Shown here: positions 4,008-49,098 of the stretch, one piece after another
Layout of the letters: each line of letters begins with the position of its first letter
Position numbering within the stretch: position 1 is the stretch's first letter
From: Candidatus Moranbacteria bacterium RIFCSPLOWO2_12_FULL_48_12
Lineage (GTDB): Bacteria > Patescibacteriota > Minisyncoccia > Moranbacterales > UBA1568
Reading direction: 5' to 3'
Assembly: GCA_001784735.1 (NCBI GenBank)
Contig: MFSB01000023.1
Span: 1-49,636, forward strand
Length of the DNA stretch: 49,636 nt
Position numbers and translations under genes: made by a program
Notes under the pieces: generated by a model
Told to the model about the DNA's origin: nothing
Seen by the model: only the letters and a program-made list of their open reading frames with translations
Databases searched by the model: none

Positions 4008-4074
4008 CTCCGTTAGAGAACGCTGCGCCTTGGGCGCGACTTCAGTCGCTTGCAGCGACTTTTCTCTAACGGGG
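4008..4074 (+). repeat. CCCCGTTA-family hairpin element, copy A
   Basis: Arms are CTCCGTTAGAGAA / TTCTCTAACGGGG, 13 bp with one T:G. The interior holds two small hairpins (GCGCCTTGGGCGC and AGTCGCTTGCAGCGACT). The element ends 9 nt before the xerC-like ATG. Confidence 0.8.
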
Positions 4075-7690: not shown

Positions 7691-9325
7691 ATGAAACGCT
7701 TCTTCCTCCGGGTTACCCAGTCGCTGGAAAATGCTCCGCTCACGCTCGCGACATTCGTGGCCAGTTTTTTCGCACTGATATTTACCCGCCTGCTCGTCGA
7801 GAACTCGCTCGGGCTGTTCGGTAACCATACCTTCTTTTATTTTTTCTTCGAATTCACGCACACCTTCCTTTTTTTCCTGTGCGCTTTTTTCCTTTTGGTC
7901 TTCCTCGTCCGCTGGGCCGGCAATGTCAATCTCGCCCAAGCATCGAACGTCCTCCTCTTCGGCTTTCTCGTCATCTTGACGCCCCCTATCATCGATACGC
8001 TCATTTTTCACGGAAGTGGTTTCTGGAGTTTCTATGAATTCGATGGTTTCCTCGGCCTCCTCAAGCGCTTCGTCACGCTGTTCGGTGATACGCCGAGTAT
8101 CGGCATCACCTACGGCGTGCGGGTCGAAGTCGTTATCGTAACGATCGCCCTCGGCCTCTACACTTTCATCAAATCACAGCGAATTAAAAAGGCGCTCATA
8201 GTTTCTTTTCTGGCCTACGCTATTCTTTTCATTCTCGGCACCTTCCCGTCCTGGCTGACGCTGTTCTTGCTCGTTTTCCAAAAAAGTTTCCTCGCCATCA
8301 ATCAGAACGACGTCGCCGCGCTTTTCCTCACACCGGAAAATATTTTCGCACGCCACCTGACAGACTTCCGCAGCGTGCTTAACGTGAAAATGAGCATCGT
8401 CTACGGAGCTTTCAGCATTTTGCTCGCTGCCGCGCTCCTCCGCCGCGAATATCCGCAATATTTCATCGCCCTGTGGAAAAATGCCCGCTTGCCGCAAGTC
8501 ATCTATCACGGCGGTCTCCTCTTTTTGGGTATGACACTCGCATTATTTTTCACCGAGGCACCTCTCACCTTTGATTTCTTCCATATCCTGAGCGCAGTCG
8601 TCTTGCTCTGTGCAGTCGAAAGCGCCTGGCTCGCCTCGGTCGTCGTCAATGATTGCTACGACACCAAGATCGATAGGGAAACCAATCCATCTCGCCCGCT
8701 CGTTCAAAACGCTCTCCCGCTGGAACTCTACAAGACTTTCGGGGCTCTCTTTTTCATCGCCTCGCTCATTCTCTCCGGCATCGTGAGTTTTTCGGCCCTG
8801 CTTCTCTTGCTCAGCTATCAGGCGCTGGCCTGGCTGTATTCCGCCCCGCCGCTCCGCCTCAAACGCTTCCCGCTTCTGGCAACGGTGTTTGCCGCTTTCG
8901 CCGGTCTTCTCGTTCTCATCACAGGTTTTCTCGCCGTTTCTCCCGAAAACGGCCTGCACGCCCTGCCGCTCCCGATTCTTTTCTTTCTTTTTGCCGCTTA
9001 TGCCTTGTGCCTGCCCATCAAAGACTTCAAAGATGTGCGCGGCGACAAGCTTGATCATGTCTATACTCTCCCGATCCTTCTCGGCACGGAAAAAGCCAAG
9101 CTGCTTATCGGCAGCCTTCTTCTCCTCCTCTATGTCCTCAGTCCGCTCATCTTGAGCGCCCGCTCGCTTTTCTTGCCCGCTCTCTTCTTCGGCAGTCTTT
9201 CCTTCTGGTCATTGCAACAAGGCACCGATGAAGAACGATCATTTTTCGCCTACCGCAAACTCCCCGGCATCATCCTCGCCATCACCGCCTTCTACGGACT
9301 GACAATTTTTTCTCTTCTTTTTTAA
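7691..9325 (+). CDS. UbiA-family prenyltransferase fused to an N-terminal polytopic membrane domain
   Basis: C-terminal half carries the two Asp-rich UbiA motifs NDCYDTKIDRETNPSRPL and KDFKDVRGDKLDHVYTLP. The N-terminal ~300 aa are multi-TM with no motif I recognise. Confidence 0.75.
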   Translation: MKRFFLRVTQSLENAPLTLATFVASFFALIFTRLLVENSLGLFGNHTFFYFFFEFTHTFLFFLCAFFLLVFLVRWAGNVNLAQASNVLLFGFLVILTPPIIDTLIFHGSGFWSFYEFDGFLGLLKRFVTLFGDTPSIGITYGVRVEVVIVTIALGLYTFIKSQRIKKALIVSFLAYAILFILGTFPSWLTLFLLVFQKSFLAINQNDVAALFLTPENIFARHLTDFRSVLNVKMSIVYGAFSILLAAALLRREYPQYFIALWKNARLPQVIYHGGLLFLGMTLALFFTEAPLTFDFFHILSAVVLLCAVESAWLASVVVNDCYDTKIDRETNPSRPLVQNALPLELYKTFGALFFIASLILSGIVSFSALLLLLSYQALAWLYSAPPLRLKRFPLLATVFAAFAGLLVLITGFLAVSPENGLHALPLPILFFLFAAYALCLPIKDFKDVRGDKLDHVYTLPILLGTEKAKLLIGSLLLLLYVLSPLILSARSLFLPALFFGSLSFWSLQQGTDEERSFFAYRKLPGIILAITAFYGLTIFSLLF

Positions 9326-15691: not shown

Positions 15692-16108
15692 TTATTCTTT
15701 ATTCTTTGCAAGTCCACAGTTCCATCGGATAATGATACCTAAAACCCCGAGGGTGAGCAAAGCATCAGCAACATTGAACAGCGGAAAAAATGGCAGTGCG
15801 ATGTAATCCGTGATACAGCCAAAGAAGAAGCGTTCCGAGAGATTCCCTAGTCCTCCGGATAAAATCAGAAGCCACGGCCACTCTCGCAAAAAAGATTCTT
15901 CCTTCCACCATTGTACAACCAAAAAAACTGAAATGGCAAAGAGTGCCGGCCCGAACAACCATTTCGGAATCATCATTCCAAGCGGTCCGCCGTAATTGCA
16001 CAGTGCCGAAAACTCGTCCGCATCAATCACCCATAATCGCAAAAGAAAATGTAAGCAAAGAAAAAGGGCGACAAAGAACATCAATCGCCCTACTTTCTCA
16101 AACCTCAT
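15692..16108 (-). CDS. lspA: lipoprotein signal peptidase II
   Basis: GGLGNLSERFFFGCITDYI and FPLFNVADALLTLGVLGII match the conserved LspA C-terminal motifs. Four TM segments. Confidence 0.85.
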   Translation of the reverse strand: MRFEKVGRLMFFVALFLCLHFLLRLWVIDADEFSALCNYGGPLGMMIPKWLFGPALFAISVFLVVQWWKEESFLREWPWLLILSGGLGNLSERFFFGCITDYIALPFFPLFNVADALLTLGVLGIIIRWNCGLAKNKE

Positions 16109-16506: not shown

Positions 16507-16680
16507 GAAATTAACCCTTACTTCATCGACTACAGTATAGCGACTAATGTGCCGTTGAGCAAGGACAGCTCTTATGATTTCTTTGTAAATGTTTTGGAAA
16601 ATGAAAAAACTATTTCTTCACCAAAGATTTTTGGATGGAGAAATAGTTAGGAAGAACTCAAGATAGGATGGGGGAACGTC

Positions 16681-17094
16681 TCAGAAAAAAATACTCTCCA
16701 AATGGCGGATTTTCGCGCTTCTCGCCACCCCATCGTACACGATAGAAAGAGCGTCAAAGGCATACTCCCGATCCAGCCACTTATTCTGGCGCAAATAGTA
16801 TGCGGCGATTTTTTGCAACTTGTGAAGTTTTTTTCGGTTGATGTTCTCCTCGGGCAATCCGAAAGCCAGTCCGCTTTTTTCTCTGGTTTTCACTTCCACA
16901 AAAACAATTTTCTTTCCTATGGTAGCGATTATATCGATCTCCCCCAAACGCCTCCCCTTCGGATTTTTATAATTCACTTCCACAATCTTGTAGCCTTTCT
17001 TTTCCAAGTACTGACAGCCCAATTTCTCCCCCAGCGTTCCCAGAGAATCACCCGGCAAGACTTTCCACCGCTCTTTTTTCTTCCACGGCCACAT
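16681..17094 (-). CDS. yraN: YraN family (UPF0102) endonuclease-like protein
   Basis: GEKLGCQYLEKKGYKIVEVNYKNPKGRRLGEIDIIA...IVFVEVKTR is the PD-(D/E)xK YraN pattern. Confidence 0.85.
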   Translation of the reverse strand: MWPWKKKERWKVLPGDSLGTLGEKLGCQYLEKKGYKIVEVNYKNPKGRRLGEIDIIATIGKKIVFVEVKTREKSGLAFGLPEENINRKKLHKLQKIAAYYLRQNKWLDREYAFDALSIVYDGVARSAKIRHLESIFF

Positions 17095-19311: not shown

Positions 19312-19414
19312 CCCCGTTAGAAGTCTGACTTGGGATATAGAATAAAAACAAGCGGCTAAAGAAATTTAAAACGGTGGAACTTTCATAGTTGATTTTGACA
19401 GACTTCTAACGGGG
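19312..19414. repeat. CCCCGTTA-family hairpin element, copy C
   Basis: Perfect 16-bp arms CCCCGTTAGAAGTCTG / CAGACTTCTAACGGGG enclose 71 nt. It lies between the pnp stop and the start of the next minus-strand gene. Confidence 0.85.
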
Positions 19415-21553: not shown

Positions 21554-21899
21554 ATGTGCGTACCTGTTTTCAGACAAGAAAAAGAAGAACAAAAGATTCA
21601 AAGCACAAAAGTCGGAAAGTGAAGCCTTAGCGGAACCCCGTACAGTCCCGTTAAAATGGGGCTGATGCGTGGGTAAAAGCTTTACTCTTTGATCTTTGAG
21701 ATTTGAACTCTTTTCAAGTCTTCCCTGTCCAAAAAAAAGGTTGTTAATGAACCCAGCACCTTCACCTCAGAGTGTTAAGCTCTGCGAGAAGGGTTTATAT
21801 TTCCGTTCATCCACGCGACGAAATCGCAAAAGAATCCTGAAAGGTGCTGGGTGAATATATTTACTCCCGCACTCTACCGAAAATACTGCCTTTTGTCAA

Positions 21900-21998
21900 C
21901 CCCGTTAGAGAACGCTACGCCCTTGGCGCGACTTCAGTCGCTTGCCCCGTTAGAATAGATATTCTAACGGGGCTTGCAGCGACTTTTCTCTAACGGGG
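21900..21998 (+). repeat. CCCCGTTA-family hairpin element, copy B (a copy-A homologue carrying a nested insertion)
   Basis: Arms are CCCCGTTAGAGAA / TTCTCTAACGGGG, 16 bp if the CAA/TTG extension is counted. The interior is collinear with copy A apart from the extra 28-bp hairpin at 21945-21972. Confidence 0.85.
21945..21972. mobile_element. 28-bp mini-hairpin CCCCGTTAGAATA-GA-TATTCTAACGGGG nested in copy B, flanked by CTTG/CTTG
   Basis: Copy A reads AGTCGCTTGCAGCGACT. Copy B reads AGTCGCTTG[CCCCGTTAGAATAGATATTCTAACGGGGCTTG]CAGCGACT. This is a clean insertion with a 4-bp direct duplication. Confidence 0.7.
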
Positions 21999-22075
21999 TT
22001 GCCAAAAGGCCGATCCCTATGCTAGCTTCCAATCAATGTCCGTTAATAACTGAATAACCAAGAAAGGGCTCTACC

Positions 22076-23503
22076 ATGGCGCTCGCGAAAAACATACTGA
22101 AGGCCGCATCTCAGCCGCCGCTTGTTTTGCTCATAGGTCTAGGCTCTGCTGGCAACGGTGCTACTGATTTTCTCAGCGGCGTCAAAGCGCGACTCCCTCA
22201 TTACAAGTTGTTTGGGGTAGTCACAAGTTTTGTTACCATCGAGGAATTCCGAGTTCGCCTCGAAGCAATGCTTGGGAAATATCCAAGCCTCAGACTCGTT
22301 GTCTTGAGGCTACGAGGTGTTGACACTCCTGGTGAGCTAATCAAAATCATCAAGGAACACAAGCTTGCTATTTTTGGAATCGCCCCTATGCGAGAAAAGA
22401 GCAGCGCAGATCTCCTCGACTTTGGCGCTTTGAAAATCGCTGGGTGCTATGAAGGCTCGAGTTGCACCAAAAATGTAGCCATCGGCGCGCGAAAAATCCT
22501 CAATATAACTACGCCATATGAAGATGACGCCAGCGATAATACTGTCCATTTTGGCGGGATTGCACGCAGGGGAAACGATGATTTTTTCCCGTGGAACGAT
22601 GGTGAAGATGTAGAAAGAGATGTCGACCTGAGCGTTTCACGAAGAGGGAGGCCAAGGACAGCTGAACTCCGAGCCATTGAAGGAGGTACTGATATGCCAA
22701 GCACGCCATCACCTGCCCGAGCTCAACCACCGGCAGCTTTGCCTGAAAATGGTAACCGAGTTGAAATACCGGCTTTTCTGACGAACCCCGGGAGTGGCTC
22801 ACCAAAGCTACCAAAAATCGGATCGAGGGTTAGACCACTCTTATTACTCCGACCGGAATCTCCACCGCCTCCTCCCGAACCCACTGCTCCACCTGCCGTA
22901 AATCAACTGAAGCCCGTCCGGCCACCAGCGGCCGCTCAACCGAAAAGGAAAACCATGAAAAACAAGCGCGATGCAACCAACAATAGTGACAGCGCCACCT
23001 TAATCAAGCAGGTGGAAAAAGGAGCGGAACTTCTGTTGGCGCGAAGGACACTGCTTATGGCCGAAGTTTCAACTATCGACAAGGCTCTCCTGCAACTTGG
23101 TCACATATCCGAAATCGGGATTAGCCGTGCAGCCGAACTTACTGCCGAAGAAAAAGCACGCCGCAAGCCCGGCAAGAAATCGGCAGCTAGCAAAACTCTA
23201 CAACGTGCATCAACCAAAAAAGCAAATGATCACCTGCGCAAGGGACAAGAAATTATCTCGCTGGAGGGAAAAGATACTGTGATGTCCAAGGGGACAGCTT
23301 GGGTATTCAAGCAGTTCCTCGTAAAACAGAAAACCATCCTCCCCGATGCTGATCTGCAGAATGGTAAAAGCCTGGATATGGTAGTCCAGCGCCTGATAGA
23401 CGTCCGCAAAGTGCTCAAAGCGCGTTACGGTGCCAAAGGATCCCGAGCCCTGGTGACCCATGTCAAAGAAGGTCATTCGCTCGACCTTTCGCTCGCGCAC
23501 TAA
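22076..23503 (+). CDS. hypothetical protein with central proline-rich linker
   Basis: 475-aa ORF. N-terminal alpha/beta-like domain (PLVLLIGLGSAGNGATDF...), a Pro-rich tract (RPESPPPPPEPTAPPAVNQLKPVRPPAAAQP) and a basic, helical C-terminal domain. No motif recognised. Confidence 0.6.
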   Translation: MALAKNILKAASQPPLVLLIGLGSAGNGATDFLSGVKARLPHYKLFGVVTSFVTIEEFRVRLEAMLGKYPSLRLVVLRLRGVDTPGELIKIIKEHKLAIFGIAPMREKSSADLLDFGALKIAGCYEGSSCTKNVAIGARKILNITTPYEDDASDNTVHFGGIARRGNDDFFPWNDGEDVERDVDLSVSRRGRPRTAELRAIEGGTDMPSTPSPARAQPPAALPENGNRVEIPAFLTNPGSGSPKLPKIGSRVRPLLLLRPESPPPPPEPTAPPAVNQLKPVRPPAAAQPKRKTMKNKRDATNNSDSATLIKQVEKGAELLLARRTLLMAEVSTIDKALLQLGHISEIGISRAAELTAEEKARRKPGKKSAASKTLQRASTKKANDHLRKGQEIISLEGKDTVMSKGTAWVFKQFLVKQKTILPDADLQNGKSLDMVVQRLIDVRKVLKARYGAKGSRALVTHVKEGHSLDLSLAH

Positions 23504-23537
23504 TTTCGCGACTGCCTACGTGAAGACTTGAATCAGA

Positions 23538-23573
23538 AACCGGGAGCACAGAACTTGTGTCGCCCGGTTTTTA
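23538..23573 (+). terminator. rho-independent terminator candidate
   Basis: AAACCGGGAGCACA-GAACT-TGTGTCGCCCGG followed by TTTTT, about 35 nt after the stop at 23503. Confidence 0.65.
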
Positions 23574-23607
23574 CTTTTTATACAAAGCCTGCAAGGTTTA
23601 TTTCACT

Positions 23608-23698
23608 TTGTCATTCCGAGCGTAGTCGAGGAATCTTGTATTTCTTGAAAAACCATAGAGCGAGATCTCTCCACTCGAAGACTCAGTCGAGATGACAA
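23608..23698. repeat. inverted pair of TTGTCATYCYGARCG...GARGAWYC units
   Basis: TTGTCATTCCGAGCGTAGTCGAGGAATCT at 23608-23636 and a diverged inverted copy ending ...GTCGAGATGACAA at 23698. A second locus of the same family lies at 30233-30320. Confidence 0.7.
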
Positions 23699-23753
23699 GA
23701 AACTCAAACAAAAAAGAATCCGTGGGGTTTCTTTTTGTTTCACGTCTCAAGTT

Positions 23754-31715: not shown

Positions 31716-31779
31716 TCGAAACTAGCTTCAAAGATACAAACTTCTCTTTGCCACGTCGCTCGCGAGCGACGGTGACTTG

Positions 31780-31890
31780 CCCCAGTTACATGTTTTAGAA
31801 ACATTGTAACTCTATGGAAAGACGTAAGACGTAGTCGCCTATCGGCTTTCACTTACCATTAACAAAGGTATTCCTAAACATGTAACGGGG
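31780..31890 (+). repeat. CCCCGTTA-family hairpin element, copy F (with conserved apical core)
   Basis: Arms CCCCAGTTACATGTTT / AAACATGTAACGGGG with a one-nt bulge. Central core GTAAGACGTAGTCGCCTATCGGCTTT (31824-31849). Flanked by CTTG on both sides. Confidence 0.85.
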
Positions 31891-31891
31891 C

Positions 31892-31920
31892 TTGCCAAAA
31901 ATGAAAAGTCCGGCTATACT
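31892..31920 (+). promoter_or_regulatory. sigma70-type promoter candidate for rpsA
   Basis: TTGCCA, 17-nt spacer, TATACT. The -35 box starts 2 nt after the last G of hairpin F. Confidence 0.55.
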
Positions 31921-32098
31921 GGGTTTTGAGGTAATTGGATAACACAACTGAATACGGGATGCTGTAATCCTATTTAGACCCTGTTCTCCAAACACTCTCG
32001 TTTATTGTCAGTGTTTTTTTGTTTTAGAGAAGGCCCCCCTATCGCTCAATAATTCATTAATCGCGAGAGAGCGGCTCGCACACCCAAACCACATATAT

Positions 32099-37804: not shown

Positions 37805-37878
37805 GGACAATTAGCTCAGTTGGTTAGAGCGTCACATTGACATTGTGAAGGTCACTGGTTCGAATCCAGTATTGTCCA
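37805..37878 (+). tRNA. tRNA-Val (anticodon GAC)
   Basis: Cloverleaf folded by hand: GGACAAT TA GCTC AGTTGGTTA GAGC G TCACA TTGACAT TGTGA AGGTC ACTGG TTCGAAT CCAGT ATTGTCC A. CCA is not encoded. Confidence 0.9.
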
Positions 37879-37880
37879 CA

Positions 37881-37956
37881 AGGTGTAACGGGGTGAAGTT
37901 AGAGCGCTACATTGACATTGTAGAGGTCTCCTGTTCGAATCAGGATACACCCACCA
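37881..37956 (+). pseudogene. tRNA-Val(GAC)-like copy with disrupted D arm
   Basis: AGGTGTA AC GGGG TGAAGTTA GAGC G CTACA TTGACAT TGTAG AGGTC TCCTG TTCGAAT CAGGA TACACCC A CCA. Length and the anticodon, T and acceptor arms are normal. The 5' D-stem strand is replaced by ACGGGG, which is the hairpin-family terminus, so the D stem cannot pair. Confidence 0.6.
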
Positions 37957-38008: not shown

Positions 38009-38119
38009 CCCCGTCACCTATTTTAGTAAAAATGTATGCTAGCTGTGGACGAAAGCCGCTAGGCGACTACGTCTTACAATTTGCATAAACCACAATCTCT
38101 TCCTGAATAGGTGACGGGG
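38009..38119 (-). repeat. CCCCGTTA-family hairpin element, copy H (core in inverted orientation)
   Basis: Perfect 14-bp arms CCCCGTCACCTATT / AATAGGTGACGGGG. The core AAAGCCGCTAGGCGACTACGTCTTAC (38052-38077) is the reverse complement of the F and G core. It is preceded by a tRNA 5' fragment CAATTAGCTCAG (37971-37982). Confidence 0.85.
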
Positions 38120-42914: not shown

Positions 42915-42987
<73 letters not shown>

Positions 42988-43086
42988 CCCCGTTAGAGAA
43001 AAACATCGATCGTTTTAAGCATTCCTGAAGGTTTTCTTGAAGAGCCGCTTCTGAACCATGAATGATGTCTGTTTTTCTCTGACGGG
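42988..43086 (+). repeat. CCCCGTTA-family hairpin element, copy D
   Basis: Arms CCCCGTTAGAGAAAAACA / TGTTTTTCTCTGACGGG, 17 bp with one T:G. It starts at the nucleotide after the tRNA-Ala discriminator base. Confidence 0.8.
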
Positions 43087-43160
43087 ATCCACATCACACA
43101 ATACAAACGAGAAAAGAGTATTGGTGTGGAATACTCTTTTTTACTATCCTGAAAAAACAG

Positions 43161-47775: not shown

Positions 47776-47884
47776 CCCCGTTAGATATTCAAGACAGTCT
47801 CTACTATGTAAAATACTGTAAGGCGAAGCCGCCTTACGGCTCTGATAAATTTTTACTACACACGCTCACTAAATATCTCACGGG
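47776..47884. repeat. CCCCGTTA-family hairpin element, copy E
   Basis: Arms CCCCGTTAGATATT / AATATCTCACGGG with one mismatch. Inner hairpin GTAAGGCG-AAGC-CGCCTTAC. Confidence 0.7.
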
Positions 47885-48625: not shown

Positions 48626-48654
48626 ATCCTAGCACAAAAACAGAAACAAGTCAA
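48626..48654 (-). promoter_or_regulatory. sigma70-type promoter candidate for the 3D-domain gene
   Basis: The minus strand reads TTGACT (48654-48649), a 17-nt spacer, then TAGGAT (48631-48626). The -35 box abuts the end of hairpin G. Confidence 0.5.
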
Positions 48655-48766
48655 CCCCAGTTACATATTCAAGGTAAGTATTATGGCTTTTTAGAGCCAT
48701 AAGACGAAGTCGCCTATCGGCTTTTAACCTCAAGAGAAGTACATCTTTGCCAAATATGTAACGAGG
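48655..48766 (-). repeat. CCCCGTTA-family hairpin element, copy G (with conserved apical core)
   Basis: Arms CCCCAGTTACATATT / AATATGTAACGAGG. Core TAAGACGAAGTCGCCTATCGGCTTT (about 48700-48724). Flanked by TCAA, or GTCAA, on both sides. Confidence 0.8.
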
Positions 48767-49098
48767 TCAAGGCCAAAGTACCACTATTTGGCTTATTTAA
48801 GGCAAATTATACCAATATTATTGGCATATTTCTGCTTAAGAGCGGCTTTTCTTGGGTTTATGCGCCCAAAAGCCCTGTGAGTTTCCCCCGCACCCCTTCG
48901 CTCCACGTGAAAAGATAGCTTCGTATGCCCATACCGCTCGCTACCGCGACATGGGTCTTCAAATTGTCGAAACAACAGGTATTTATCCCAGAGCGAGCCA
49001 TGTACCCTGAAACGAGATTAAGCTCGTTTCATATCCGCGGCCAGCCTCGCCAAGTCTAGGCGGGCAAGCCGTGGGGGAAAGCCTGTGGCTATTAGAAC

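Follow-up and report, generated by a model that had tools for sequence, protein, structure and literature searches.

A complete member of a family of miniature elements, one consisting of inverted ends alone, probably landed in the internal stem-loop of another member, element B, and duplicated the tetranucleotide CTTG, and the family appears to be mobile DNA that makes a true 4-bp target duplication and is tied to a gene-carrying unit encoding a small GIY-YIG nuclease. We put the probability of this reading, which leaves the identity of the enzyme aside, at roughly 70%. On this reading, element B is a non-autonomous miniature transposable element. The window, that is, the whole stretch of DNA analysed, comprises 49,636 nt of Candidatus Moranbacteria bacterium RIFCSPLOWO2_12_FULL_48_12 (GCA_001784735.1; MFSB01000023.1, positions 1-49,636, forward strand), whose genome is represented by 55 contigs totalling 0.99 Mb and is 95% complete; the Moranbacteria belong to the candidate-phyla radiation (CPR).

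Element B (21900..21998) belongs to a 67-bp family of miniature elements and carries a nested hairpin, the layout being CCCCGTTAGAGAACGCTACGCCCTTGGCGCGACTTCAGTCG-CTTG-CCCCGTTAGAATAGATATTCTAACGGGG-CTTG-CAGCGACTTTTCTCTAACGGGG. The nested 28-bp element CCCCGTTAGAATAGATATTCTAACGGGG (21945..21972) consists of two perfect 13-bp inverted arms and a 2-nt centre and nothing else, is bordered by one CTTG on the left (21941..21944) and one on the right (21973..21976), and was matched in none of 100 shuffles of the window. Element A (4008..4074), a 67-bp copy without hairpin whose loop holds a single CTTG, represents the paralogous empty site. The initial annotation had described the two copies as collinear, with CTTG on both sides of the inner hairpin of B, and verification of the coordinates showed that A equals B minus the 28-bp hairpin and minus one CTTG. 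When B was folded as single-stranded DNA, the 13-bp hairpin capped the host stem AGTCGCT/AGCGACT, so that the insertion point falls in the apical loop of the second host stem. At its own ends B has no duplication (TCAA/TTGC) and sits at an indel boundary, and the flanks of A (TAAA/TGAA) match at three of four positions.

Three composites of a 67-bp host and a hairpin are present in the genome, namely B, contig 1 8164-8262 (hairpin at 8209-8236) and contig 43 15687-15785 (hairpin at 15713-15740), all with the hairpin at the same host position. The flanking words are CTTG/CTTG in B and the contig 1 composite and CTGG/CTGG (in host orientation) in the contig 43 composite. Since a hairpin-free 67-bp copy with a CTGG loop was found in the same-genus genome G002, the flanking word appears to follow a variant target on both sides, as is expected of a true duplication and not of a carried word or a chance repeat. 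This observation weighs against single-stranded movement of the IS200/IS605 or REP kind, in which a hairpin would be excised with four 3' bases and pasted beside a matching tetranucleotide, the flank repeat then being a carried word plus a matching target and no true duplication. Such movement would suit several features, as the whole element folds into one hairpin, the published Ssn relatives cut only single-stranded DNA beside hairpins (PMC11893778), the words tend to run in subfamilies (TCAA/TTGA in the 67-bp family, TCCA in element D and its twin, TGAA in one gene-carrying lineage), and the right flank of gene-carrying copies nearly always gives a stop codon while the left flank varies. 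However, the words also vary inside subfamilies, and a 28-bp hairpin leaves no room for a guide sequence; together with the CTGG/CTGG composite, these points make single-stranded movement quite unlikely in our view.

The distribution of the two forms bears on the direction of the change. Hairpin-free 67-bp copies occur at unrelated loci in six genomes (the Moranbacteria genome and five others), and six of the ten copies in relatives have a perfect duplication, whereas composites were found in three organisms only, the Moranbacteria bacterium and two others, in one of which the composite has decayed and in the other of which it lacks the left part of the host. A search of a species-representative genome collection for the exact hairpin gave no match, and a single metagenome scan recovered the contig 43 locus twice and one decayed composite from another organism. 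Free mini-hairpins of 29-41 bp with family ends are present in other genomes of the order, two with perfect duplications; those of genome G037 have their own duplications, TCAA/TCAA and TAAA/TAAA. It might be argued that the 99-bp composite is the older form and that 67-bp copies arose by deletion between the CTTG repeats, with nothing inserted, as replication errors commonly delete the segment between short direct repeats that surround a hairpin, and a single pair of copies gives no direction. In that case, however, the excised part would happen to equal a complete family member with canonical ends, and unrelated copies contain nested mini-hairpins flanked by a TTTA duplication. Given the far wider spread of the 67-bp copies, the rarity of composites, the free mini-hairpins and the CTGG case, deletion from an older composite is the less economical account and we regard it as very improbable.

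Two further lines of argument for insertion were dropped. In some composites, the hairpin lies in the opposite orientation, the sole difference being its two central bases, and these two orientations are no proof of independent insertions, as a flip of the 2-nt loop suffices. Likewise, a 54-bp chimera in G017 is no proof of alternative end use, as deletion between 10-bp direct repeats CCCCGTTAGA suffices. Self-targeting, which had been proposed for B, extends beyond it and is seen in the three composites, in two nested inserts in a gene-carrying copy on contig 37, in nested mini-hairpins in other phyla and in tandem family pairs with one common duplication. In these pairs, contig 28 5541-5713 and contig 22 6829-7033, one duplicated word (CTCA and TTCA, respectively) lies between the partners, as if the second element had entered the duplication of the first.

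For a genome-wide survey of the flanks, elements were collected as end pairs NCCCGT(T/C)A(G/C) or CCCCAGTTAC whose first 13 bases were complementary with at most one mismatch, giving a curated set of 47 elements with lengths of 28-254 bp. In 22 of these 47 (NCCCGTTA...TAACGGGN), the ends are abutted by a perfect 4-bp direct repeat, and 9-10 more match at three of four positions; when the right flanks were permuted among the 47 elements, the mean was 2.9 (sd 1.6) and the maximum 11 in 20000 trials. Perfect identity was confined to the abutting register: registers shifted outward from the element ends gave no flank matches, and those slid into the ends had fewer and fewer matches, since they run into the conserved CCCC/GGGG termini. 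The survey thus yielded a consistent 4-bp duplication and upheld the earlier argument that the duplications are unlikely to be due to chance. The target is not specifically of the CTTG/CAAG type considered in the initial annotation, as the duplicated words (TCAA/TTGA, TTCA/TGAA, TTTA/TAAA, CTTG, TCCA/TGGA, CTGA, CTCA, CCAG and TAAG) follow a loose Y-N-N-R pattern and are mostly TCAA/TTGA and TTCA/TGAA.

Within the window, the three perfect duplications first reported were all present, and a fourth had been overlooked. Besides the CTTG pair inside B, element F (31780..31890) is flanked by CTTG/CTTG (31776-31779 and 31891-31894) and element G (48655..48766) by TCAA/TCAA (48651-48654 and 48767-48770); the additional case is element D (42988..43087), a 100-bp copy at the 3' end of tRNA-Ala(GGC) flanked by TCCA/TCCA (42984-42987 and 43088-43091). 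Element C (19312..19414) has the flanks TTTA/CGAG without duplication, and element E (47776..47884), which has a degenerate right end, the flanks TTCA/CAAG. Element H (38009..38119), of the CCCCGTCACC subfamily, lies in a region with a tRNA-Val relic. At window 37805-37893, a tRNA-Val gene is followed at once by a family right end (GTGTAACGGGG).

The ends of the family share a conserved terminal motif (NCCCGTTAG/A ... T/CTAACGGGN), with arms of 13-17 bp and a conserved NCCCGTTA end. Only about 10 terminal bases are conserved; the inner arms are subfamily-specific yet complementary, and the interiors are mostly unrelated between copies. About 50 small non-coding copies are present in 1 Mb. Among 61 related genomes, the gene-less class of about 100 bp numbers 20 copies in the Moranbacteria genome, seven each in G036 and G037 and 0-4 in the others (a reversed-pattern control gave about 0), and the closest gene-carrying copies are present in each of the three richest genomes. 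Some members contain a whole tRNA gene between the inverted ends, for example G034 contig 8 449352-449455 and G002 contig 27 5058-5165. An unrelated repeat of about 175 bp is also dispersed in the genome, with at least eight copies of 82-98% identity (contig 43, about 16650-16840, and contigs 8, 54, 16, 12, 1, 36 and 38).

Among the preferred sites are the first bases of -35-like boxes (TTGACA, CTTGCC) and the 3' ends of tRNA genes, and other family members are also hit, at their ends and in their loops. In many copies, as at loci L057, L061 and L062 and in the window at 31891-31925 and 21999-22030, the terminal GGGG of an element stands directly against a -35-like box, either TTGACA-N17-TAnnnT or CTTGCCAAAAA, so that the duplication preserves the promoter. 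Because many copies lie immediately upstream of a -35 box or at the end of a tRNA gene and their stems covary, the hairpins might be taken for functional structures under selection, such as signals for RNA processing, terminators or sites of protein binding, that are not mobile. An Rfam search of the window at gathering thresholds returned tRNAs alone, however, with no family matching the hairpin elements, and the flanking duplications, the nesting, the ends held in common with a nuclease gene and the variation in presence or absence between related genomes all speak for mobility; of all the alternatives, we give this one the least credence.

Comparison with related genomes provided an empty site for element D. 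In the same-genus genomes G005, G006 and G020, the tRNA ends in ...ACGGTCCA and runs directly into CATCACAT..., which in the window is found behind D; a single TCCA is kept there, and D plus one TCCA is therefore the only difference. A 98% identical twin of D lies behind tRNA-Ala(CGC) on contig 42, also between TCCA and TCCA. In the case of element F, similarity to six relatives sets in precisely with the right CTTG, where the conserved promoter CTTGCCAAAAA-N-TATACT of an S1-protein gene begins; none of the six has an element at this site, and the left side is not alignable. Empty sites of the kind envisaged in the initial annotation were thus recovered for D in three relatives and as hairpin-free 67-bp copies. 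Transposition with a 4-bp target duplication, as originally suggested for the family, is supported by the flank statistics, the empty site of D and the CTGG word that follows its target. The filled/empty polymorphism that had also been envisaged was not observed: in 20 same-population assemblies (99.8-100% identical; contigs found via two flanking proteins), E, F and G are all filled, and the family therefore shows no sign of current activity at these sites.

No clean empty site for B was found in the nearest relative, G023, which is collinear up to the left end of B (at TCAA) and resumes 1.8 kb further on, B lying at the left edge of the 1.8 kb that this relative lacks. In place of window 21902-23733, which contains a 475-aa orphan gene and a further hairpin pair besides B, G023 has 76 bp. 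At window 21888-22010, the flanks of B form a further inverted repeat, with GCCTTTTGTCAA to the left of B and TTGCCAAAAGGC to its right (11 of 12 positions complementary). Nearby, 100 bp at window 21752-21851, within a 12-bp inverted repeat ACCCAGCACCTT/AAGGTGCTGGGT, are missing from the orthologous pnp upstream region of G023; this repeat has CCCAGCACCT in common with the inverted repeat bounding the contig 31 GIY-YIG gene within the 23S rRNA gene. Other small GIY-YIG genes, located on contig 31 (4704-4955 and 6966-7205), contig 18 (1936-2184), contig 47 (11064-11303) and contig 8 (37469-37705), lie either within the 23S rRNA gene, bounded by 19-bp inverted repeats, or beside duplicated or hairpin-interrupted tRNA genes, and small GIY-YIG genes in such 23S and tRNA settings number about ten in 1 Mb.

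The only gene-carrying form of the family is a unit of about 277 bp with a single gene, which encodes an 86-aa, one-domain GIY-YIG nuclease; gene-carrying and gene-less copies are regarded as one family because they have the ends, the target words and the nesting habit in common. When the distance between end pairs was widened, the sole match with closely matched arms was contig 37 107-558, where matched ends CCCCGTTAGAGTCA surround a minus-strand GIY-YIG gene that is interrupted by a 67-bp and a 100-bp family member. A second gene-carrying copy, internally deleted, lies 2.4 kb off (contig 37 2923-3156), and both gene-carrying copies of this CCCCGTTAG-type family in the genome are broken. No significant similarity to the nuclease gene was found in the interior of the 67-bp family (score 20 versus a shuffled mean of 19.9). 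PF01541 is the only Pfam match of the protein, which has 86-89 residues, and its best solved relative is UPF0213 protein BH0048 (E = 3e-12). Homologues were found in 43 of the 61 related genomes, 14 of the 17 closest lying between family-type ends 274-305 bp apart, and a wider search returned more than 400 relatives with 65-79% identity in Patescibacteria, Omnitrophota, Planctomycetota, Desulfobacterota, Elusimicrobiota, Nitrospirota and others.

Matched ends NCCCGTTAGAG...CTCTAACGGGN, 274-291 bp apart, were present in 65 of the 80 loci kept from these relatives, and in all 65 the GIY-YIG gene is the sole gene inside the ends. The right end itself encodes the three C-terminal residues (LTG), and the stop codon usually comes from the flank. 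Perfect 4-bp duplications flank 19 of the 65 gene-carrying loci (permuted mean 8.6, maximum 16), and six further loci have TTGA, TCAA, CTGG, TTTA or TGAG on both sides, giving a total of about 25 of some 75; two gene-carrying loci hold nested mini-hairpins with their own TTTA duplication. A different class of flanks, the non-duplicated pairs TTTA/TGAA or TTCA/TAAA, was found in 17 of the 65 copies, which are scattered over the tree, so that the pairs are not inherited. Among loci L099-L178, 16 of the 65 gene-carrying copies have the flanks ATGAA-T...A-TGAA (hyphens marking the junctions), in which the stop codon of the nuclease (TGA) overlaps the ATG regenerated at the right junction.

Inverted ends together with a fixed 4-bp duplication are the signature of cut-and-paste transposition by DDE enzymes, and the elements might accordingly be ordinary MITEs moved in trans by a DDE transposase (IS1380/piggyBac-like or IS5/IS701-like), with the GIY-YIG gene as a passenger or a settled homing gene. 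IS1380/piggyBac elements have C residues at the start of their ends and duplicate 4 bp at T-rich words, and the family ends starting with CC fit this pattern; other cargo, namely tRNA genes, is carried by the elements, and the odd flank classes of the gene-carrying copies would suit a separate route for the gene. TTAA is the left flank of three gene-carrying copies but never occurs as a perfect duplication. Against a DDE enzyme, the two profiles searched, PF01609 and PF13701, had no match in this 95%-complete genome, and no DDE gene of the IS1380/IS4/IS5 type was found between family ends. No end pairs with matched arms lie more than 600 bp apart in the genome, the few pairings over longer distances having 2-13 mismatches in 16 arm bases, and repeats of IS size are absent; compared with IS1380/piggyBac, the Moranbacteria elements are smaller by an order of magnitude. 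In addition, the GIY-YIG gene is the only one between the ends at every one of the matched-end loci, and gene-carrying and gene-less copies show the same duplications and target words. A DDE transposase acting in trans is thus unlikely, although we consider it the most plausible of the alternatives to GIY-YIG-linked mobility.

If the nuclease drives the movement, it would recognise the hairpin or cruciform made by the element ends and make the cuts, and host ligation and repair would join the element and fill the 4-nt stagger. Recognition of structure plus a short sequence would fit a family whose conservation is limited to about 10 terminal bases and whose inner arms covary. We hold this role of the nuclease, as cutter at the folded ends with host enzymes joining and filling, only tentatively, at somewhat below even odds. 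To our knowledge, characterised GIY-YIG nucleases carry out DNA hydrolysis only, and their cuts leave short 3' overhangs or nicks and not 4-nt 5' overhangs, from which a 4-bp fill-in duplication is not expected. The flank classes TTTA/TGAA and TTCA/TAAA of the gene-carrying copies are left unaccounted for by the nuclease model. It is conceivable, though we lean slightly further towards doubt here, that the family represents a separate class of prokaryotic transposon, in which an 86-residue GIY-YIG nuclease would be the sole mobility protein, the ~277-bp unit its autonomous form, the 28-bp hairpin the minimal substrate, and host repair the means of completing the 4-bp staggered insertion.

The closest parallel to the gene-carrying unit is found in the Ssn proteins, GIY-YIG nucleases of about 94 residues that cut only single-stranded DNA beside NTS/SRM hairpin repeats, whose genes are often bracketed by these repeats in a layout that the authors liken to an insertion sequence, with mobility as a hypothesis (Chenal et al., Nat Commun 2025, PMC11893778). 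Both systems have a free-standing GIY-YIG protein of about 90 residues and a gene bracketed by a hairpin repeat that is also dispersed in the genome. The SRM pattern HGTCWY...RNCYNB, however, overlaps none of the 47 family element ends, and the CCCCGTTAG-type family thus lacks this defining feature of Ssn systems; moreover, the Moranbacteria repeats are the two inverted ends of one discrete unit, for which duplications, empty sites and nesting are documented. With UPF0213 BH0048 as the best solved relative of the family protein, its placement in the Ssn clade cd10448 is only a candidate one. A separate, canonical SRM system is present in the same genome, with 34 SRM matches located elsewhere than the family ends and two Ssn-type GIY-YIG genes flanked by TGTCATTCCCGCGAAGGCGGGAATCCAG-type SRM hairpins (contig 5 145-392 and contig 3 2485-2985). 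Some SRM hairpins are nested inside a 254-bp CCCCGTTAG element (contig 8 56542-56795).

Among gene-less elements, the Correia/NEMIS elements of Neisseria and the Nezha elements of cyanobacteria have inverted ends, a target duplication, a foldable transcript, and intergenic and promoter-proximal sites. The Moranbacteria family resembles such bacterial MITEs in being short, gene-less and multi-copy, with inverted ends, a duplication, a foldable transcript and intergenic or promoter-proximal positions, and its members show the MITE hallmarks of terminal inverted repeats, a fixed 4-bp duplication and small, non-coding, multi-copy units (28-254 bp). A further hallmark of MITEs is that their ends are common with those of an autonomous element; for known MITEs this is a DDE insertion sequence, whereas the only partner of the Moranbacteria family is the GIY-YIG nuclease gene, the 277-bp unit of which may encode the transposase. 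The family also differs from these MITEs in that just the terminal ten or so bases are conserved and that the smallest member is 28 bp long. Identification with a cyanobacterial small dispersed repeat or a Nezha-type MITE was dropped, the genome being a 1-Mb Moranbacteria assembly.

Like REP/REPIN-RAYT systems, the family comprises dispersed hairpin repeats that flank one small nuclease-type gene and are probably recognised as folded single strands. The RAYT enzyme, however, is an HUH tyrosine (Y1) protein and not a GIY-YIG nuclease, REPs have no target duplication, and the Moranbacteria genome has its own separate RAYT-like gene. Both IS200/IS605 and REP/RAYT were rejected on anatomy, given the inverted ends, the duplications and the GIY-YIG gene between the ends. 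Integron attC sites (RYYYAAC ... GTTRRRY, no duplication) were likewise rejected, as the order in the family is GTTAG ... CTAAC and a 4-bp duplication is present. In the literature, we found no description of a prokaryotic element that combines a GIY-YIG gene with inverted ends and a target duplication, and the family is probably undescribed.

Should the nuclease prove to be the driver, transposition would be carried out by a hydrolytic GIY-YIG domain, without DDE, HUH, serine or tyrosine chemistry. The ~277-bp unit would then be the smallest self-sufficient transposable element known, adding a new class to the catalogue of insertion sequences and moving the lower size limit of autonomous mobile DNA further down. 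The minimal substrate would be given by the nested 28-bp copy, so that oligonucleotides would suffice for a direct test, and the recently described Ssn nucleases can be compared with the family. The family has spread widely among uncultured phyla whose genomes are tiny, and its promoter and tRNA-end sites, together with its tRNA-gene cargo, suggest that it likely shapes gene expression and gene replacement in these organisms.
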